A stretch of 64,000 nt of DNA. It comes from an uncultured archaeon (lineage in GTDB: Archaea > Asgardarchaeota > Thorarchaeia > Thorarchaeales > Thorarchaeaceae). The DNA is taken from contig CAZPWM010000003.1 in NCBI GenBank assembly GCA_964590575.1, forward strand, positions 4,587-68,586. The letters run 5' to 3'. Below, one piece after another: positions 53,463 to 63,225 of the stretch. The translations under genes were made by a program, and so were the position numbers. The stretch's first letter is position 1, and every line of letters begins with the position of its first letter. The notes below the pieces were generated by a model. That model was not told the origin of the DNA. It worked only from the letters and a program-made list of their open reading frames with translations, and made no database searches.

Positions 53463-53539
53463 ACCAAATGTCTTATGAAAAAGGTCATAAAGAAAACCAA
53501 GAGGCTGTCGCATGTTCTGAATAATTGGAGTGATTGACA

Positions 53540-53887
53540 ATGTCTACTTATGTTACTCGGGTGTCTGTTTGGTTCTACAGTGAAGGTGCATCCCCCTCTC
53601 AAGTGATGAGCAAGCTCCAAGAGCTTGGTTTCAAACCTGTTAGAGGCGCCTATGACTTTGTGTATGAACACAGCGCTGTCGATATGACCGACGCGGACCT
53701 TGGCAGCGCAATAATTGAAATCTCAAATGCATTACATAAAACACTCTCTGGATTCAAGGTACTCTACAATCTCGATACCCATCTTTCTGAAGGAGAAGAA
53801 GATTACTTTCCTCTCGAAGACATTGATGCTGAGTTAGAAGATACCAGAAGAGAACTTGAACAGATTGAGAACGAAGAAGCAGATTAA
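53540..53887 (+). CDS. conserved hypothetical archaeal protein with acidic tail
   Basis: F.SEGASPS.V...L.ELGFKPVRG.YDFVY. GGAGTGA RBS. Confidence 0.75.
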   Translation: MSTYVTRVSVWFYSEGASPSQVMSKLQELGFKPVRGAYDFVYEHSAVDMTDADLGSAIIEISNALHKTLSGFKVLYNLDTHLSEGEEDYFPLEDIDAELEDTRRELEQIENEEAD

Positions 53888-53946: not shown

Positions 53947-55734
53947 CTAAATTGATGAAACCACAGGCTCACGACGTTCGTATTCTCCTTCACCCTGCAC
54001 AGTGACTCTGATTTTCTTCTTGTCACCGGGATTCATCCTAGTCCAAGTCCAAACCATTTGTGAACCATCAGTAACAGATAACACATCAGGTGCATCATCT
54101 TCAGGATCCGTAGACACATATTCGAAACCCGCAGGAATCCAATCTGTAATTTCGATGTTCTCAGCAGTCACTTCACCATTATTAGCCACTACCAGCACAA
54201 CGATGTATTCCCCAGCACCAACTCCCTTGTTAATCGCCTTCTTTGTAGAGATCGCACGCTTCTTATAGATAACTCCAAGTTTATGACCATCTTCAGGGCT
54301 TGCTATTACCAAAGGAATTCCTGCAGGTTCCGTGTTAGCTATACATGTTATTGGTGATGGATACTCTTTCTCTGGACGATTTCGCCATGCCATAACAGCA
54401 TAGTTAATTTTAAGGCTTTCACCGGGCTCGAGTTCTCCGCCCGATTTACTCAAATCCTCAACTCTAAAGGTCATTTTGTGAGGCTTTTCTGGGTCTTGGT
54501 CATCAGGATTAATTACAAACTCATAAGGACCCGTATACTCCTCACCCTTAATCCACACAGTGATATGCTCACTAGTTGGGGGCATGACATCATCTGGTAA
54601 ATTGTCCTCGATTGTAATTTCGTTCAAACGTGCAGAACCATTGTTAGTTACTTCTATCGTGACCTCAACTGGGGTCTTGTCAAAGCTGCTTACTGATGGA
54701 GGATCAAATGTCTTTGAATAGTCAATACTATATACTGGAATCTCTTGAGGCGTTTTCTCAATTGATCCAAGTACTCGTTTTGTGACTGTCCTTACAGGAG
54801 TGTACACAAGGTCTTGTGTGCATTTTGGAGTTGATTTGCTCTCAACCTCGAATGATGAAGTCCATTCTTGGTCTGGCTCCAATTCAATACCAGGTGACTC
54901 CTCTATCATAATTTGTTTCTCGCCACCACCTTCTGGAGTGAGATAAATCACCGCGTTCTCCAACCTAACGATAAGGTCGCTTTCGTTTGAACATTCAAGT
55001 GTGCATTGCCATTGGTTTGGTTCAGTTTCAGCAGTTTCAATTCCCGTCAAAAACTCAGTTAATGCGGTTAGTTCTGGATTGAGGATGGACCTCTGTTGTC
55101 CTTCGGCTCTATAAGTGATGATAACATCACCAGATTTCCTTGGGTTCTTGTCTTCGACAAGTCCAGTTGCACTGATGATGAGTGAGGAAGACTCTCGTGG
55201 ATAAATAACGAAGTCTTTCCAGACCACCTGTCTTGTTCCTTCATCATATTCAGCTATGCCAGATTTTGCAGACACTATTTCAAGATTGGAAAGTTCATGT
55301 GGAATGGTCTTGTTTAGAATGATGTTGCTAATTTCACCATCTGTTTCGTTGGTGATTGAGAGTGTAATTTTAACAGGATTTTCCTTCCCGATAACATAAG
55401 CCCAGTGTGGGTCTTCTGTTTCAATTGTTCCACAAGTATTATACACTTCCTTGAGGGATATTAGAGGTGCTTCTACATCAACACTATACTTGGTGTACCA
55501 CTTACCACCGACATCTATCTCCCCTGCTGTAAGCGTATCAATACTAATATCTGTAGCATCACGAGTCCCTCCTAGGAGGACCTTAGCATTCCAGATGCGA
55601 CTACGCTCTGATACATTGTTAACACTCAGAATACCCGAAGCATCAATACGATTCAGTTCTGATAATCCACCAAGCTGAGCCTTCTCCGATTCTTCGAGGT
55701 CAATTACGACCTTTTTTCTTACATTCTCACTCAT
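53947..55734 (-). CDS. multi-beta-sandwich protein (DUF11-like repeats; possible mu-homology-domain-like N-terminal half)
   Basis: 595 aa with no signal peptide or TM. Three N..I.D.(L/I)P...W Ig-like repeats; N-terminal strand pattern like adaptin mu/delta-COP. Confidence 0.75.
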   Translation of the reverse strand: MSENVRKKVVIDLEESEKAQLGGLSELNRIDASGILSVNNVSERSRIWNAKVLLGGTRDATDISIDTLTAGEIDVGGKWYTKYSVDVEAPLISLKEVYNTCGTIETEDPHWAYVIGKENPVKITLSITNETDGEISNIILNKTIPHELSNLEIVSAKSGIAEYDEGTRQVVWKDFVIYPRESSSLIISATGLVEDKNPRKSGDVIITYRAEGQQRSILNPELTALTEFLTGIETAETEPNQWQCTLECSNESDLIVRLENAVIYLTPEGGGEKQIMIEESPGIELEPDQEWTSSFEVESKSTPKCTQDLVYTPVRTVTKRVLGSIEKTPQEIPVYSIDYSKTFDPPSVSSFDKTPVEVTIEVTNNGSARLNEITIEDNLPDDVMPPTSEHITVWIKGEEYTGPYEFVINPDDQDPEKPHKMTFRVEDLSKSGGELEPGESLKINYAVMAWRNRPEKEYPSPITCIANTEPAGIPLVIASPEDGHKLGVIYKKRAISTKKAINKGVGAGEYIVVLVVANNGEVTAENIEITDWIPAGFEYVSTDPEDDAPDVLSVTDGSQMVWTWTRMNPGDKKKIRVTVQGEGEYERREPVVSSI

Positions 55735-55809: not shown

Positions 55810-56505
55810 TCAGTTTAGCTCGTATCTGAATTCGTTTCCTGCGGCCCAGTAGGCTTCTAGAACCTGATTTGGTTGCATAATGACTGGAACTGTTCCCTGA
55901 CCAAATTGCTGAACATATTTGGAGAATTTCTTTGGGTCCTCCTCAGACGACCATCTCATGGGTATTCCAATTCGTGGTTTTGCATCAATACACAGACTGA
56001 CTGCATCTTTCACTGGAAAGACACCATCACCACCAACTGGTACTATAAGGACATCCATATCGAGTTGCTCGAATGGACCTCGGACCACCGAGTCACCAAG
56101 GTAGCCCACTTTCATATCTCCAATCTCAATATATAATCCAAGATTTTCAATACGTCCACCTTCTCCCTCATCAATTCTTGACAGAGAATAGGGTGTAATT
56201 TTCACATCTGGGATCTCATAGGGGATCTCAGGTTGGAGAACGTGCAGTAACCACGGTTTTGCTCCTTGTTCTGAAACTTTGTTAACTGTTCCTTGATTTC
56301 CTAGGAACCATGCTTTTGAATCGACTGCGATGGTTGCTGCATTACCAACCGCATCGTCTGATTGATTCGTTGCTATGACAATTCTAGCACTGAAGTCGTT
56401 TGGAACAACAGATTCACCATCCCAAATTCCAGGATTCAGAAGAATCGTCGTTTCATTATATTCGAGTGCGAATGAAGTCCTTCCAAAGTACACTATTTTG
56501 AGCAA
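55810..56505 (-). CDS. UPF0173-like MBL-fold protein lacking the His ligands
   Basis: ILLNPG, ATNQSDDA in place of THxHxDH, GYLGDS, VPVGG, IPMRW. TTG start near 56505. Confidence 0.8.
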   Translation of the reverse strand: MLKIVYFGRTSFALEYNETTILLNPGIWDGESVVPNDFSARIVIATNQSDDAVGNAATIAVDSKAWFLGNQGTVNKVSEQGAKPWLLHVLQPEIPYEIPDVKITPYSLSRIDEGEGGRIENLGLYIEIGDMKVGYLGDSVVRGPFEQLDMDVLIVPVGGDGVFPVKDAVSLCIDAKPRIGIPMRWSSEEDPKKFSKYVQQFGQGTVPVIMQPNQVLEAYWAAGNEFRYELN

Positions 56506-56751
56506 CAAATCACACCCCGTCAATACGCATTGGCACGGTCAAGCCAGAATGAATGCTGCACTACTATCGTTGAGATTGTTATTAATAAGGTAATTTCGAA
56601 CCAATGCGAAATCCCTGTATTTTCGTCTATTTTGTCTGTTTTTCGGCGCCGTATTGTGCAAACTCCGGTTCACCGAGTGCTATCTTTTTATGACCCGGAC
56701 AAGACTGAGAGTTAGAGGTCCTGCAAATCCCGCGGAATTGTATCGAGCGAG

Positions 56752-58053
56752 TTGGATTCTATGTTAGATAAAATTCTCACTGAGAACTTCAGACGAACAT
56801 TGAAGATGGTCTTTACAGACATTAACAACCAACAAGACCGCCGCGATGAACATGAATTTGCTAAAGATGAAGTCCGAATCAAAGAGCGGCTTCTTGATAC
56901 TTTCACTACTCATCGTCATGATGTTATTTTGGAGAACGACTTCAGAATAGCTGCTATTGATGGATCAGGCACGGATAGTCTGATGACCCTGGATGACATC
57001 AGGATTCATCTTCTTAGTACCTCTACTGTCGTAGTAGACACTAACACACAATCTGAGAATCTATTCTCTCCTATAGAAAGGGACACCTTGGAGAATGAGC
57101 TAGGAGAACAACCGCATATAGACATACACTGGCATTCAGGAGTGCGAGGCGATGCTCGTAATAAGCTCGCTGAAACGTTAGCAAGTATCTATCCGTTGAA
57201 AGATGTAGCTAGTTTAACTCTTCCATTTTTCAAGGACCACACTAAGGGTGAAATCGCTTCTTTCTCTGATTTCGGTGACACTGAGTATGAGAAACACGTT
57301 CCGCGTTTGAGGGAACTTGAATCACTGATCTCTCGTGAGCAGTTATTGACTAATCCTACGGTCCATGAAGAGATACGAAAGACAAGTGAGTATGCAGCAG
57401 CTCGTCGACTTCTTATGAGTGATATACAACCGAAGTACCTTCTCTTGGACGGAGCGTTGTCCGTCTTCATGCATTTTGTGCGACACTATCCATCTATGCC
57501 AAGTGGGTTTATGCTAAGAGATGTATGTGCTTTGGCAAGGCAGAAGAATGTAGTCCTATGTGCTGTAAGTAAGAATCATACGATTCCGTTTGCGCATCGG
57601 ATAGCAGGAATGGCACGAGAAAAGTTTGGGGCGTCAGCAAAGTGGTTCTGTCATCTACCAAGCAGGGAAGATCCCGAAGGAGGTCTGCATATCTACGAGG
57701 ACCGAACCTACATACCTCCAATGTTAGCTGTACCGTATTTGTATAGCTTCTCCAGGGATAATAGACCTTCTAGAATTGATTTCGACAGGATTTGGTGGCT
57801 CGAGAACATATTTGTACCAGGCGACCCGGGAGCAACCCGTTCAAATGAAAAGACACTTTTTGCTGAGTTAGAGTTCATGTCAAGAGACGCTCGATGGTAT
57901 GGATACCCAGTGCCTCTTGCATTAGCTCATGAATCGTGTAAGTTGAGTTATGAAGACCTACGACTTGCAAAGGAAGTATGTATGGATGTTCGATCAGAGA
58001 TGGGTCTTGAAATGCGAAAAGCTGAACCACTACGTGCAGACTATGATTTGTAA
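56752..58053 (+). CDS. nurA: NurA-family 5'-3' nuclease
   Basis: IAAIDGS, LLDG.L, AVSK, YGYPVPLALAHE. Confidence 0.88.
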   Translation: MDSMLDKILTENFRRTLKMVFTDINNQQDRRDEHEFAKDEVRIKERLLDTFTTHRHDVILENDFRIAAIDGSGTDSLMTLDDIRIHLLSTSTVVVDTNTQSENLFSPIERDTLENELGEQPHIDIHWHSGVRGDARNKLAETLASIYPLKDVASLTLPFFKDHTKGEIASFSDFGDTEYEKHVPRLRELESLISREQLLTNPTVHEEIRKTSEYAAARRLLMSDIQPKYLLLDGALSVFMHFVRHYPSMPSGFMLRDVCALARQKNVVLCAVSKNHTIPFAHRIAGMAREKFGASAKWFCHLPSREDPEGGLHIYEDRTYIPPMLAVPYLYSFSRDNRPSRIDFDRIWWLENIFVPGDPGATRSNEKTLFAELEFMSRDARWYGYPVPLALAHESCKLSYEDLRLAKEVCMDVRSEMGLEMRKAEPLRADYDL

Positions 58054-58068
58054 ACTGAGGAAAAAACC

Positions 58069-59829
58069 ATGAGTTTAGATAGAGACAAACTTGGAGAACT
58101 TTTCGGAAAGGTGGGTGTAGGCAACCAGACCACACTCGGTATAATGGGTAATAATCGTGATATCAGTGTGGGTGAGATATTCATGATTTACTCCAACCGC
58201 GATGGCCATGAGAGGGTGTTCTTCTTCAGAGTCCTTGGTCTAGAAAACTATCTTCGACAAGTTGACGATATGGCACGCATAGCGGGGACACTCATGGTGG
58301 AAGGAGATGCATATCTCTCAGGAATTGAGCGGAACATGCTCCTCTCTATAGGTGGTCGAATGCTAGGTTATGCAGAGAAGAAAGGTGAGGAATGGACCTT
58401 TAAATCACCTAGACGACTCCCAGATCACTTGGCTTCAGTGTATCGTCCTATCCCTGGCACGTCTGATGATTCTGTTCGAGCAATGCTAGAGTGTCAGACT
58501 GATGGCCAGGTCTATGTTGGTGACCTCCAAGTTGGAGAAGCCACACTTGATGTACCAATCAAGATACCTTCAAAATTCCTACCAATGCATGTAGGCATCT
58601 TTGGGTCGACAGGAGCTGGAAAGAGCAATCTGATGATGGTCCTGATCAAATCAGTCATTGATAACAACCTAGATGCTTTCAGAGATGCAAAACAAAAGTT
58701 ACAACGAATATCCGCATTCTGTATCGACCCCCATGACGAGTTTGCCAAGGGTGTTGACAAGTACGGGATTCAGCATGTGGTAGAAGATATGAGTCCTTCA
58801 ACAAGGTCTGAGGTGATAGGTGATTTCTACTACCTGACAACCCACAAGAGAGCTACGACTAGAGAGATTCGAGCACATGCTCGCGAAATCAGAATTCTGT
58901 GGTCCGAGATTCAACCAAGAGATCTTTACTCGATTAGAGAGTTCACTCCCGAGATGTCCTCTTTCATAGATACACAATATTCAGTAGCAAAAGAGGATTG
59001 GATAAGTGCGATAATCAATATGAATGAAGACGAAGCTGGAGTGCCTGCAGGTACTCTGAGAGCGGTGAAACGCAGACTTAGTTTTTTGGAACGGTCTCCA
59101 ATTTTCATTGAGCAAGGATCATCCATTTTGAGTGACATCTTTATTGCCATGGAAACTGGCAGAGTTCTGGTTGTCAATACGAGTTTAATGGGCGATATGG
59201 AGCAGTTCCTACTCACAACAATCGTGACACGGACATTATCTGATATGAGACGAGCTCTGAAGAGCAGCGGGAATCTAGGTGATTTCATGAATCAAGGTGA
59301 GATGCGTCTTCCATCACCATTCTTTAATTCTGTGGAAAAACAAGCTCGTGCATTCTATGGTATTGGAGGCGTCAAAGATGAAACTCCAGTTCAAGACCCA
59401 AGGTCTCTCCCGGTAATCCAGGTGACTGTTGAGGAAGCCCCATCCATCCTCAACCCGGAGCTAATGAAAGGCCAATCTGTATTCAAAGACATCTCCCGCC
59501 AAGGCCGCAAGTTCAACATAGGGCTGCTTGTTGTAAGCCAACAAGTAAGCGTGCTTGACAACGTGATTCTGAGCCAGATGAACACCGAGATTAATCTAAG
59601 GCTTGGAAACGAGCGTGAAATCAGGGCTTGTATTGAGAACGCGAGTGTGAATATTTCTGGGTTTGAAAGTGAGTTCCGAGTCATGTCCCGGGGAGAGGCG
59701 ATTGTTACGCAATCGTATAGAGAACTCCCCTTACCAGTCAGAATTCCTCTCTTCGACGATATCTATGAAAGGGACAAACATAGATACAAAGACAAAGGTT
59801 CAAAGAAGAGTGAAGAACACATTCTCTGA
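58069..59829 (+). CDS. herA: HerA-family bipolar helicase/ATPase
   Basis: N-terminal HAS-barrel region, H.GIFGSTGAGKSN, IDPHDE, VEEA, RQGRKF, SQQ, SRGEA. Confidence 0.9.
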   Translation: MSLDRDKLGELFGKVGVGNQTTLGIMGNNRDISVGEIFMIYSNRDGHERVFFFRVLGLENYLRQVDDMARIAGTLMVEGDAYLSGIERNMLLSIGGRMLGYAEKKGEEWTFKSPRRLPDHLASVYRPIPGTSDDSVRAMLECQTDGQVYVGDLQVGEATLDVPIKIPSKFLPMHVGIFGSTGAGKSNLMMVLIKSVIDNNLDAFRDAKQKLQRISAFCIDPHDEFAKGVDKYGIQHVVEDMSPSTRSEVIGDFYYLTTHKRATTREIRAHAREIRILWSEIQPRDLYSIREFTPEMSSFIDTQYSVAKEDWISAIINMNEDEAGVPAGTLRAVKRRLSFLERSPIFIEQGSSILSDIFIAMETGRVLVVNTSLMGDMEQFLLTTIVTRTLSDMRRALKSSGNLGDFMNQGEMRLPSPFFNSVEKQARAFYGIGGVKDETPVQDPRSLPVIQVTVEEAPSILNPELMKGQSVFKDISRQGRKFNIGLLVVSQQVSVLDNVILSQMNTEINLRLGNEREIRACIENASVNISGFESEFRVMSRGEAIVTQSYRELPLPVRIPLFDDIYERDKHRYKDKGSKKSEEHIL

Positions 59830-59839
59830 GGATGAACAC

Positions 59840-61150
59840 ATGAAGGCACGAATCGCTCACATCTCCGATACCCATCTTGGCACACGGCCCAGAACCGGTG
59901 TGCGCTATAACGTATGGGGCGAGGAGATGCGATCTCAGCTCCTTGAGAACGATTTCTATGAGCGGTTCCAAGAACTCTTTGATAAGATTTCCAATCTTGA
60001 CCCTCCTGTTGACCTTGTTGTTCATTCAGGTGATTTGTATAATTCCCCTTGGGAGGGAAATCCTTCTCAACCCCCTGTAGTCGCTCAGGAGACCGCTATC
60101 ATAGTCCTGCAGAACTTCATAAAGAAAACAGGGATTCCTGTGCTTATTATAGAAGGGAACCATGGTCTCTATAGGCTTCTAGAGGTTTCTCTCCTAGATA
60201 GTCTGAAACTAGCTGTTCCTGGTTTAGATGTTGTGACACAACAAGATTTGAAACAAGCAGTGAGAGCGGGTGAACCGCTTGTTTATTCCTATGATAAATT
60301 GGATGTTTATTGTTTCCCCTTCATGGACACTGCAGTTCTCAAAGCTGCGAATATGTTCTCAGGTTTTGATGATTGGATTACATCACACCAGTCTCGTGTT
60401 AGATCACGACCGTCGATTGCTGTTGCTCATGGAATGGATGTGGACCAAACTCTCTTCAAGAGTATATTCTCCATGGATTATGACTACATAGCTTTGGGTC
60501 ATGACCACCATCAACATATGCACTCCAAGGTTGCATGGTATGCTGGATCACCTGAACGATGGAGGTTTGATGAGGCTCGTCATGAGAAAGGGTTCCTTGT
60601 GATAGATATCACAGCAGGATCAACACCGATAGTAACACCACATATTCTTGATTTCGACCGCCTTATCCTCAACGAGAAAGTGATGATAGAAGTCGATGAC
60701 AGTATCGAATCAATAACAGACAAGGTATACGCTCTATTTGATGAGAAAGGCATCAAAACATCTTGGAACCCGAAAAACGCTGCACGAATTCGGCTTGTGT
60801 TTGAAGGGAAAGCAACGCGTGTAAGCTCATTTGACCTTGGAATGGCTCTTGAGTCTCTGAGAGTCAAAGTTCTATCAAAAGAGTCCAAATACAACATTGT
60901 GCAGCTTGCTTGGCTTGTTAGACAATCTGTTGATGAGGAATACACGGCGGCTTCATATCCTGAAATCGAATCTGAGTATCTCATCGAAGACCCAGAGGTG
61001 GATTTCCGTGCATATCTTGATACCTTGGAGATTGACAAGAGTTTGGATCCGAGTGTACTCACCAAGATTGCTGTACGTGCGCTCGAATATACTGTAGGCA
61101 AGAAGGAAGGTCGTTTGAGTGTAGAATCAATCATGGAGGATGAAAAATGA
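59840..61150 (+). CDS. mre11: Mre11/SbcD-family phosphoesterase nuclease
   Basis: HISDTHLG, SGDLY, EGNH, VAHG, LGHDH, YAGSPER, EKGF. ATG at 59840. Confidence 0.9.
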   Translation: MKARIAHISDTHLGTRPRTGVRYNVWGEEMRSQLLENDFYERFQELFDKISNLDPPVDLVVHSGDLYNSPWEGNPSQPPVVAQETAIIVLQNFIKKTGIPVLIIEGNHGLYRLLEVSLLDSLKLAVPGLDVVTQQDLKQAVRAGEPLVYSYDKLDVYCFPFMDTAVLKAANMFSGFDDWITSHQSRVRSRPSIAVAHGMDVDQTLFKSIFSMDYDYIALGHDHHQHMHSKVAWYAGSPERWRFDEARHEKGFLVIDITAGSTPIVTPHILDFDRLILNEKVMIEVDDSIESITDKVYALFDEKGIKTSWNPKNAARIRLVFEGKATRVSSFDLGMALESLRVKVLSKESKYNIVQLAWLVRQSVDEEYTAASYPEIESEYLIEDPEVDFRAYLDTLEIDKSLDPSVLTKIAVRALEYTVGKKEGRLSVESIMEDEK

Positions 61151-63225
61151 AGATCCTCCAGTTGCAGGTTCGAAACTTCAAACCTTTCAGTCATCTTTCA
61201 CTGCCTGATGGAGATGCTGAACTACCAGATGGACTCATTCTAATTAAAGGTCCAAACTCTACAGGTAAATCTTCCCTTTTCGAAGCTATCCTCTGGGGTC
61301 TCTGGGGTGCAGACGCGGTCGGTCTAACTAATGACGAACTCATCAACTTCAGATCAACATCTTGTCAGGTAATTCTGACCTTTCAGGTTGCAGGAACTAA
61401 ATACAAGATAGACCGGTCCTATGATCCTGCCAATAGACTGGCTGTTGCGTTATTCGTCAATAGGGAAGGTGCATGGAAGCGAATTGCTGACAAGAGCAAT
61501 TCTGTCAATTCAAAACTTGATGAACTCTTGAATCTTGAGCTCAAACAAGCACTGAGTACATTGTTGGTCCGTCAAGGAGAGGTCGCTGTCATAGCAAATG
61601 CCACCCCTTCTGTATTGAGAGACCTCCTTGTGAATGTCTACAATATTGACCTGCTCAGTCAGATGTCAGGTCATCTGGAAGGTCTAGAGAAAGAGGTTGA
61701 ATTGAAGGTCAAAGCTCTAGTTTCGGATTATACTCGTCCAGAGGAACTTGAGAAACAGATTGAAGACTGTGAGAATCGAATAAGACACTTTGAATCTGGA
61801 TTAACAACGAGGATAAACGAGATCCAATCAACCGAGAAGATACTTCAAGATATTCCAAGTGTTGACACCCTCAAGAACATTCACGAACTCAGTATTAAGA
61901 TCAACTCCCTTCAACGTGAGGTTGAAGTCATGAGTGACGGTCTTGAAGAGGATCTTGCACAAGCTGGAATCGTTGATGCAAGCGCCAAGATTTTGAATGC
62001 TCGATTGGATGCACTTGAGAAAGGACGAAAACGAATTGAAGGAGAACGTATGGACTTCAAGCGTAAGATACAGGCTGTGGACCAGGAGATTGGATCGATT
62101 ACTGGTATGAGTCGTGATTTGGAGGATAAGATACAAACCCTCGCTGGCGCTGGAACTGAAGATGTCATTGAATGCCCCACTTGTGCAAAACCACTTTCTC
62201 AAGCTGATCGGGAGCGACTTATGAATGAATACAACTCAACTATCGCAAATGGTGAAACCTTAAGGAAAAAATTGGAGCGTGATAAAAAGCAATTAATTGC
62301 TGCATCAGATGACTTAGAAGATCAACTCACTCGAATGTCCAAGAGCGAGGATGCGGTGAAAAGGATCAGCCAAGGGCAGACGAAGGTAGATCAGACAAAG
62401 GAGAAAGTCGCCAAATTGGAACATGAATTTTCGGTCGTTCTGAAGGAAATTGGAATCAAGAGCGTTGAAGCCTTACTCAAGAAGTACAACATGGCTACTA
62501 TCCTAGACCTTCAAGAAAAAGTAATAGCCCTCTCAGCGGCTTTGAAGGCTCTTCATAAGGAAACTTTGGAGAATGAGGAAAACATCCGGAGAGAACAGGA
62601 TAAAATTACAGAGCTTCAGAACAAGCAGGAAGATATGGAACGAATAGGAGCTGAGATTGTAGATCTTGAAACTTTAAATGAACATGCAAAGTATGTTCGA
62701 AGAAGACTCGTTAGTGGTTTTGTTGCTGATTATGTTTTTCAGAAACGTTTACTTGGTATAATCAAAGGAGCAACCAATCCATATGTACATTCTTTCACTA
62801 ATGGTCAATATACGGGAATCGATCTCGAACCAACGCAAGCTAAGGGTCGCTCGGGCTCTGGGCTAATTCTGAAAATTTGGGATGAACGAGACCAAGCTTG
62901 GAAAAAGACATCTCAATTGAGTTATGGAGACAGGACCGCTATCAGTCTGGGGCTTCGCATGGGAATAAGTCGTACAATGAGTAGTATTCGACCTCTCAAA
63001 GACAGTCCTGTTGTGATCCCCCGTGTTCGCTCTGTTCTTCTTGATGAACCCTTAGGAGGTCTCGACAAGACCCGACGCGAAGCTGTAGTGAGAACTCTCG
63101 TCAATGACCAGAGTTTCGAGCAGATACTATTGATAACCCACACTGATATTCAAGGTTGGGAAGGCATACCTGTCATTGATGTGTCCAAAGCGGGTACTTA
63201 TAGTAATGCAGTTCTTGAAATGTGA
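61147..63225 (+). CDS. rad50: Rad50/SbcC-family SMC-like ATPase
   Basis: Walker A GPNSTGKSS, Q-loop RQGE, zinc hook CPTC, signature LSYGD, Walker B LLDEP, ITH. ATGA overlap with mre11. Confidence 0.9.
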   Translation: MKILQLQVRNFKPFSHLSLPDGDAELPDGLILIKGPNSTGKSSLFEAILWGLWGADAVGLTNDELINFRSTSCQVILTFQVAGTKYKIDRSYDPANRLAVALFVNREGAWKRIADKSNSVNSKLDELLNLELKQALSTLLVRQGEVAVIANATPSVLRDLLVNVYNIDLLSQMSGHLEGLEKEVELKVKALVSDYTRPEELEKQIEDCENRIRHFESGLTTRINEIQSTEKILQDIPSVDTLKNIHELSIKINSLQREVEVMSDGLEEDLAQAGIVDASAKILNARLDALEKGRKRIEGERMDFKRKIQAVDQEIGSITGMSRDLEDKIQTLAGAGTEDVIECPTCAKPLSQADRERLMNEYNSTIANGETLRKKLERDKKQLIAASDDLEDQLTRMSKSEDAVKRISQGQTKVDQTKEKVAKLEHEFSVVLKEIGIKSVEALLKKYNMATILDLQEKVIALSAALKALHKETLENEENIRREQDKITELQNKQEDMERIGAEIVDLETLNEHAKYVRRRLVSGFVADYVFQKRLLGIIKGATNPYVHSFTNGQYTGIDLEPTQAKGRSGSGLILKIWDERDQAWKKTSQLSYGDRTAISLGLRMGISRTMSSIRPLKDSPVVIPRVRSVLLDEPLGGLDKTRREAVVRTLVNDQSFEQILLITHTDIQGWEGIPVIDVSKAGTYSNAVLEM

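Follow-up and report, generated by a model that had tools for sequence, protein, structure and literature searches.

Clathrin adaptors, COPI and the endocytic muniscins recognise their cargo and partners through modules called mu-homology domains (MHDs). In delta-COP and the muniscins, this domain mediates protein-protein interactions and does not read YxxPhi motifs. DUF11/TIGR01451 repeats are characteristically found in surface proteins of archaea and bacteria. Here we describe a gene in a 64,000-nucleotide stretch of contig CAZPWM010000003.1 from an uncultured thorarchaeon (the window, meaning the whole stretch of DNA that was analysed), whose product we call the MHD-DUF11 protein. We consider it fairly probable that this is a soluble cytoplasmic scaffold in which residues 1 to ~255 are MHD-like, with a second lobe (lobe B) of DUF11 type, and which acts as a binding platform together with an MBL-fold partner rather than as the medium subunit of an adaptor complex.

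The sequence-only reading of the window had remarked that some adaptor- or coatomer-like domains were already reported in Asgard archaea, and this is correct. Supplementary Table 3 of Eme et al. 2023 (Nature 618:992, PMC10307638) contains 44 rows of candidate eukaryotic signature proteins (ESPs) under Adap_comp_sub (PF00928), the Pfam family of the MHD, and most of these rows, Thorarchaeota orthologs included, belong to the MHD-DUF11 family. Our protein is an ortholog of the entry Thorarchaeia_Thor_24 (77% identity over 298 aa, E=2e-170, BLASTP) and is 32% identical to Jordarchaeia_GBS07_35160 (E=3e-52, BLASTP); the Loki-, Hel- and Hermod- entries are recognisable as the same family by eye, without alignment. 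That study relied on Pfam-level detection only, called the distribution sparse, found no longin-MHD fusion either, and reported that Asgard genomes encode other trafficking-related ESPs. Two later structure-based surveys of Asgard ESPs do not discuss the MHD, and a full-text literature search combining Asgard with mu-homology, muniscin or Adap_comp_sub wording returned nothing relevant. Because the standing of the family as an MHD candidate is already known at that level, the novelty of the claim is low. What we add to the earlier survey is useful but modest: support for the fold, a broad distribution in the phylum (78% of sampled genomes), the DUF11 identity of lobe B, and a conserved gene pair with the MBL-fold protein.

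The gene was confirmed as an open reading frame (ORF) with an ATG start and a product of 595 aa. Its parts, and the gene with which it is paired, are as follows.

53947..55734, minus strand: whole ORF of the MHD-DUF11 protein, soluble and acidic, in the order MHD-like module, extra beta-sandwich, two DUF11 Ig domains
55420..55734, minus strand: residues 1-105, predicted first part of MHD subdomain A; six strands (AF2 DSSP), a long N-terminal hairpin at 9-39, and invariant N40, S42 and E96
55090..55383, minus strand: residues 118-215, subdomain-B-like beta-sandwich that bears the AP mu sequence signal and is also a DUF11-type repeat unit
54970..55089, minus strand: residues 216-255, strands following B (219-225, 228-238, 241-250), candidate return strands that would complete subdomain A
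54739..54969, minus strand: residues 256-332, six further strands with no eukaryotic MHD counterpart, which form either an additional sandwich or an extension that packs against the module; invariant W291 and P303
54280..54738, minus strand: residues 333-485, DUF11/DUF7507-type Ig-like domain 1; Pfam DUF7507 at 337-384, a DUF11 stretch, model strands over 337-478
53950..54279, minus strand: residues 486-595, DUF11-type Ig-like domain 2, the best DUF11 match (PF01345 at 507-580, TIGR01451 at 514-543)
55810..56523, minus strand: MBL-fold (Lactamase_B_3) gene, 75 nt upstream of the MHD-DUF11 gene and co-oriented with it (Pfam E=2.5e-16)

As the sequence-only reading had proposed, the protein appears soluble. 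Its N-terminus (MSENVRKKVVIDLEESEK) is polar with no signal peptide, and the maximum Kyte-Doolittle 19-residue mean is 1.17, so that no transmembrane segment is indicated; the same search for a signal peptide, transmembrane segment or C-terminal anchor found none in 121 homologs, where the mean is at most 1.42. The three Ig-like repeats claimed at the same time were also recovered. PF01345 (DUF11) scored 66.6 bits against a cutoff of 24.6, and TIGR01451 (NCBIfam) scored 45.7 bits against a cutoff of 24, in 3 stretches each, and the AF2 model is all-beta. Given that such repeats are usual in surface proteins, and that the giant DUF11 proteins which match lobe B (see below) look like adhesins, the protein could be regarded as a cell-surface or secreted, adhesin-like DUF11 protein exported by a non-classical route, in which case a cytoplasmic adaptor would be beside the point. 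Variable surface proteins would not be expected to keep a fixed length of ~595 aa and a single conserved copy, and the gene lies in a co-transcription context with a cytoplasmic-type MBL-fold protein. With export signals absent in all 122 sequences, we rejected this explanation, which we regard as very improbable.

The evidence for an MHD-like fold is principally structural. AF2 modelled the full-length protein with a pLDDT of 88.4 and residues 1-332 alone with a pLDDT of 93.9 and a pTM of 0.83, the latter as one unit that includes the strands of 256-332 (AF2 DSSP). The pLDDT dips at the linker between subdomains A and B, residues ~100-117. When the full-length model was compared with the PDB by Foldseek, generic multi-Ig chains came first, followed by dozens of MHDs. 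With the model of residues 1-332, all of the 50 matches listed were mu-homology domains: AP-3 mu3A, AP-2 mu2, AP-1 mu1, AP-4 mu4, delta-COP (4o8q) and FCHo1 (5jp2). These had E values from 1.5e-11 to 4.5e-9, probability 1.0 and sequence identity of 8-14%, and the TM-score (TM) on target length was 0.53-0.70 for isolated MHD chains and 0.36-0.49 if the chain included a longin domain or fusion partner. Thus, the predicted model of residues 1-332 is bilobed and all-beta and exceeds a TM of 0.5 on isolated chains of solved MHDs. Notable matches were 4ikn (E=1.5e-11, TM 0.67 on target length), 9uuj (TM 0.70) and 5wrk (rmsd 3.6 A over 229 columns). On query length the TM was only 0.43-0.55, which we attribute to the ~80 residues (256-332) that have no MHD counterpart.

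Near-gapless Foldseek alignments of 229-245 columns span ~90% of MHD chains of 245-255 residues, and therefore include part of the C-terminal return strands of the MHD. In addition, alignments of ~340 columns that reach the C-terminal hairpin of the query raise the query-length TM from 0.47-0.51 to 0.50-0.55. Assignment of the first part of subdomain A rests on an hhalign alignment colinear with mu2 171-~280 and on the homolog P0108, which aligns to PF00928 from profile position 10. We conclude that the MHD-like fold of the N-terminal module is well supported by prediction, with the order of its strands putative. Where the sequence-only reading would have been undone by tandem DUF11/Ig domains only, with no MHD topology and no significant profile match, we obtained a Foldseek listing made up of MHDs and, as described next, profile links to them.

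Two independent profile directions tie the family to AP mu, one from PF00928 to family members and the other from an Asgard profile to PDB sequences. In the first direction, several close homologs bore a precomputed PF00928 tag, and PF00928 matched 8/8 of the tagged orthologs tested (E 2e-6 to 2e-5, 24.3-27.5 bits) over residues ~108-220. P0108 is colinear with the profile across both lobes, its residues 12-220 lying on positions 10-222 of 259. The C-terminal canonical DUF11 domains provide an internal control, since in the eight orthologs tested they were never the best PF00928 stretch even though they are the stronger DUF11 domains. For the second direction, we used a domain-only alignment (A2) that joins residues 1-332 to 20 sequences taken from other families in the phylum (27-61% identity; n=21), of which 15 were matched by PF00928 at E<=0.01 (best E 2.5e-7). 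Searched against 177,635 distinct PDB sequences, the A2 hidden Markov model (HMM) gave 28 matches at E<=10; the top 24 were AP-3, AP-2 and AP-1 mu subunits (best E=4.6e-6), and no DUF11 or CARDB structure was among the matches. The alignment is limited to subdomain B, pairing profile 115-213 with mu3A 292-389. A profile of the full-length family (A1) had 0 matches to PDB sequences at E<=10; the AP mu signal is visible only with the diverse N-terminal profile. A search by phmmer with the single protein against the PDB gave noise only.

These results bear out the likeness to MHD subdomain B that had been noticed in a second motif of the protein, which is seen in the A2 search, in the PF00928 matches of orthologs, and in the isolated fragment 106-218, where PF00928 reaches E=0.0026 (17.6 bits). 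The accompanying caveat that this motif is also typical of DUF11 was equally justified, as DUF11 reaches E=0.00047 on the same fragment. A gapless N-terminal pairing with the first MHD strands (KKVVIDLEESEKAQLGG...ILSV with NELFLDVLESVNLL...), proposed in the sequence-only reading, was reproduced by hhalign, which placed query 7-42 on mu2 171-206. For this comparison, the human AP2M1 sequence was checked against PDB 2bp5_M (435/435 identical), and mu2 orthologs at 68-100% identity supplied the template. The whole alignment is colinear, with query 7-196 against mu2 171-377, and extends through lobe A.

Two groups of observations weigh against our reading. The first concerns the sequence signal and the strand order. 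PF00928 gave no match at E<=10 to the whole 595-aa protein and, as an HMM run across the whole source genome (91% complete), no match there; we take the genome-wide null to mean that the protein is too divergent for direct detection and not as evidence of absence. No tested member attains the PF00928 gathering threshold (24-27.5 versus 31.6 bits). Of the profile check that had been proposed, then, the DUF11 half gave a score above its cutoff, and the PF00928 half gave nothing on the whole protein and sub-threshold scores in orthologs. The hhalign score of A2 against the mu2 profile was poor (P=1.3e-3, probability 18%), which is explained by the shallow template (Neff 1.6), and we use this result as weak support for colinearity only. 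The putative discontinuous A-B-A order of strands, in which subdomain B would be inserted in A, draws indirect support from the colinear Foldseek alignments. Mean-field direct coupling analysis (DCA) of 270 unique family sequences (Neff ~134) yielded hub-dominated noise without clean strand ladders; the couplings 19-69, 21-225, 68-225, 94-319 and 98-316 are suggestive but unreliable and were not used as support.

The sequence signal is, moreover, confined to subdomain B, and it is equally a DUF11 match. The DUF11 and PF00928 matches overlie the same ~75 residues of the Thorarchaeota protein, and DUF11 matches 15/21 A2 members, the same number as PF00928. When A2 was run exhaustively with HMMER over 1.84 billion cluster representatives, 2245 proteins scored E<=1e-3. 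The full-domain matches are proteins of ~450-1350 aa, and every named one is Asgard (Thor-, Jord-, Loki-, Borr- or 'Promethearchaeota'). A second class consists of giant proteins of 2,000-6,600 aa that match only profile positions ~96-193, in 15-33 tandem copies, which argues that lobe B is a DUF11-type repeat unit. Within the same protein, lobe B is similar to the C-terminal DUF11 units too (residues 118-143 compared with 355-380). The MHD of mu2 has no DUF11 match at E<=10, so the bridge between DUF11 and the MHD is seen from the Asgard side only.

These same observations would be expected if the protein were a string of five Ig-like/DUF11-type sandwiches whose likeness to the MHD is generic or convergent, without common ancestry, given that subdomain B of the MHD is an Ig-like sandwich too, whose strands follow a similar pattern, 'iP...G.a.y....l.W.i'. 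DUF11 scores at least as well as PF00928 on residues 106-218, all PF00928 scores are sub-threshold, and the hhalign probability and the identity to MHD structures are low. However, tandem-Ig chains are absent from the 50 neighbours listed for the 332-residue model, which come from six eukaryotic MHD families; the leading PDB matches of A2 are AP mu and none is DUF11 or CARDB; P0108 and hhalign carry the alignment through lobe A; and the canonical DUF11 domains of these proteins never give the best PF00928 stretch. We therefore consider purely generic resemblance a serious alternative but an unlikely one, and the interpretation given at the outset to be supported as structural resemblance, with remote homology to MHDs probable.

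The second group of observations concerns the adaptor function. The features that would mark an AP or COPI medium subunit, a fused longin domain and genome-encoded Adaptin_N large and sigma small subunits, were not found. No longin domain is fused to the MHD-like module, which begins at residue 1. In the source genome, PF01217 (Clat_adaptor_s, sigma/longin) had no match, control genomes being also silent, and PF01602 (Adaptin_N) had a single generic HEAT-repeat match:

G000:C14:6402-6683, minus strand, locus L058: HEAT-repeat ORF of 463 aa; PF01602 48.9 bits summed; prokaryotic control genomes match too

This ORF probably encodes a generic HEAT repeat protein. We also compared the YxxPhi pocket of mu2 (F174, D176, K203, W421, R423) using the low-confidence hhalign alignment, in which no conserved pocket residues were found: D176 corresponds to D12, which is conserved in Thorarchaeota only, K203 lies opposite the variable position 39, and W421 and R423 are unaligned. 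The protein has an isoelectric point (pI) of 4.55 and is acidic in every segment, which argues against a basic lipid patch or PIP2-binding surface. Lastly, no trafficking gene neighbours the MHD-DUF11 gene in the window, and none is linked to it in any of 13 loci with clustered 14-19-kb neighbourhoods. Beyond the predicted fold, nothing here would support a direct role in membrane traffic.

It is conceivable that the protein is nevertheless equivalent in function to the MHD of mu, delta-COP or the muniscins, reading short motifs in accessory proteins or in the tails of membrane proteins and contributing to Asgard membrane remodelling with small GTPases, longin/roadblock proteins or ESCRT. The MHD-like predicted fold, the cytoplasmic location and the other trafficking-related ESPs of Asgard genomes would fit such a function, as would the wide conservation in the phylum, which suggests a core cellular role. 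Nevertheless, the conserved neighbours in the 13 loci are MBL-fold or GHL-like genes, the acidic protein would lack a basic lipid patch, conservation of the Tyr pocket is not seen in the tentative alignment, and the subunit profiles leave only the HEAT-repeat match, making this an improbable account. Of the adaptor-like candidate put forward in the sequence-only reading, then, the resemblance to the MHD stands by Foldseek and profiles, and the membrane-trafficking or cargo role has no evidence here to back it.

Compared with known systems, the protein shares with the MHDs of AP mu1-mu4 (PDB 1BXX, 4IKN, 4EN2, 4MDR) the predicted bilobed all-beta fold (TM 0.60-0.70 on target length), reciprocal profile matches on subdomain B and a weak colinear alignment through lobe A. 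Unlike mu, it lacks an N-terminal longin domain, is extended after the module by ~80 residues and by two DUF11 Ig domains, is acidic where mu is basic, shows no conserved YxxPhi pocket in the tentative alignment, scores under the Pfam threshold, and comes from a genome without the partner subunits as judged by PF01217 and PF01602. The MHDs of delta-COP (4O8Q, 5NZU chain D) and of the muniscins (FCHo1 5JP2, PF10291) have the same predicted fold, with a lower structural match than AP mu (TM 0.53-0.59 on target length); there is no sequence match to PF10291 (muHD), and where their modules are joined to longin or F-BAR partners, the Asgard module is joined to DUF11 Ig domains. The role of these MHDs as interaction modules fits a generic binding-platform role for the Asgard protein. 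With DUF11/TIGR01451 repeat proteins it shares three repeat units that pass the curated cutoffs, and databases annotate the family accordingly (homologs are still 'hypothetical' or 'DUF11' in public annotation). In contrast to them, it has no export signal, its first repeat unit forms part of a bilobed module resembling the MHD, and it shows a fixed architecture, single copy and phylum-wide conservation.

The likeliest binding partner would be the MBL-fold protein encoded directly upstream. An MBL-fold gene is directly upstream of and co-oriented with the MHD-DUF11 gene in 37/38 loci of four families, one of which, f7, includes Jordarchaeales. The partner genes compared were:

locus L049, 9131-9820: MBL-fold partner gene
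locus L050, 7194-7901: MBL-fold partner gene
locus L056, 9045-9755: MBL-fold partner gene
locus L053, 7176-7880: MBL-fold partner gene

The HxHxDH motif of the MBL fold is intact in Jordarchaeales and family f19 (SHEHKDH, THSHPDH, THAHLDH) and degenerate in the source contig (TNQSDDA) and family f2 (TVDQEES), where the gene pair is retained all the same. Retention of the pair despite the decayed motif suggests that the pairing is independent of catalysis, and the decay in the source lineage speaks for a partnership based on binding and not on catalysis. Judged by its motif, the MBL-fold neighbour looks like a pseudoenzyme retained for a non-catalytic role. A few low-depth metatranscriptome contigs match the MHD-DUF11 gene at ~99% identity, with DNA carry-over possible, and one contig from a relative crosses the MBL/MHD intergenic region; together these are weak evidence of expression and co-transcription of the two genes. 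Metagenomes of salt marsh and marine sediment are the source of the DNA runs that contain MHD-DUF11 sequence.

In families f8, f13 and f15, a Cys-rich GHL-like gene lies directly downstream instead of the MBL gene upstream. Its product is ~335-360 aa long, with a CxC...C cluster and only faint similarity to GHL6/GHL10 (glycoside-hydrolase-like TIM barrel). Families f9, f10, f28 and f30 have neither an MBL nor a GHL-like neighbour. These and the remaining neighbouring features are:

locus L048, 9822-10886: GHL-like downstream gene
locus L054, 9773-10771: GHL-like downstream gene
locus L057, 6045-7124: GHL-like downstream gene
locus L071, 5794-6843: GHL-like downstream gene
loci L061 and L072: GHL-like downstream genes
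window, 56752-63225, plus strand: nurA-herA-mre11-rad50 cassette, divergent from the MBL/MHD pair
locus L053, 479-7001: divergent nurA-herA-mre11-rad50 region
locus L046, 493-6977: divergent nurA-herA-mre11-rad50 region
window, 53534-53887, plus strand: acidic ORF of 116-117 aa that converges on the 3' end of the MHD-DUF11 gene, kept in other Thorarchaeota (L046 9847-10197, L047 9844-10194)

The cassette arrangement is common to the source's family and f2, and the convergent ORF matches no Pfam family. Nearby genes are archaeal in kind: besides NurA/HerA/Mre11/Rad50 they encode an ArcS-like DUF5591/PUA protein, a radical-SAM protein and an MrfA-type helicase.

The N-terminal module was found in 234/301 sampled genomes of the phylum (78%), including 75/90 high-quality genomes, and in 57/70 genera. 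More than 120 full-length homologs, nearly all labelled Thorarchaeota, are 63-89% identical to our protein. The gene is single-copy in the source genome and in all matching genomes of the source's family but one, in which two contig-end fragments represent one gene. In the Loki-like family f9, genomes carry 1-4 copies and the proteins are longer, ~700-730 aa (e.g. G186:C76:6311-7270 and G040:C32:88353-89318). In Table S3 of Eme et al. 2023, some Lokiarchaeales entries are extended at the N-terminus by a long stretch rich in Lys and Glu and have a large acidic insertion where the A-B linker lies. An ortholog in the same family as the source genome (G069:C105:180074-181048) has an in-frame TAG within the MHD-like region, for which sequencing error, a pseudogene or recoding are possible explanations.

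Taken together, we propose that residues 1-~255 form a predicted all-beta module of two lobes that folds like the eukaryotic MHD (AP-1 to AP-4 mu, delta-COP, muniscins), in which lobe B (~118-215) would be a DUF11-type Ig unit, followed by the beta-sandwich of 256-332 and two canonical DUF11 Ig domains, which makes five predicted sandwiches in all. By analogy with MHDs, the protein may act non-enzymatically as a platform for proteins or peptides, with the MBL-fold protein as its putative main partner, and it would not be the medium subunit of an AP-type heterotetramer. The results do not show adaptor complexes in Asgard archaea. The protein is soluble, ~66 kDa in size and encoded by a single-copy gene, and its candidate partner is obvious, so it makes a testable target for structure and interaction work.

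Lobe B links MHDs to the prokaryotic world of DUF11 repeats. One speculative extension, which we hold to be possible though doubtful on balance, is that the Asgard protein keeps the ancestral state of the MHD. The domain would have arisen in Asgard archaea as a DUF11 Ig unit became lobe B, and eukaryotes would later have fused the module to longin (mu, delta-COP), F-BAR (muniscin) and stonin scaffolds; the Asgard protein would already have been a motif-binding adaptor, with an MBL partner in some lineages. Because MHDs act in vesicle coats, the origin of this domain bears on the rise of vesicle trafficking in eukaryogenesis.

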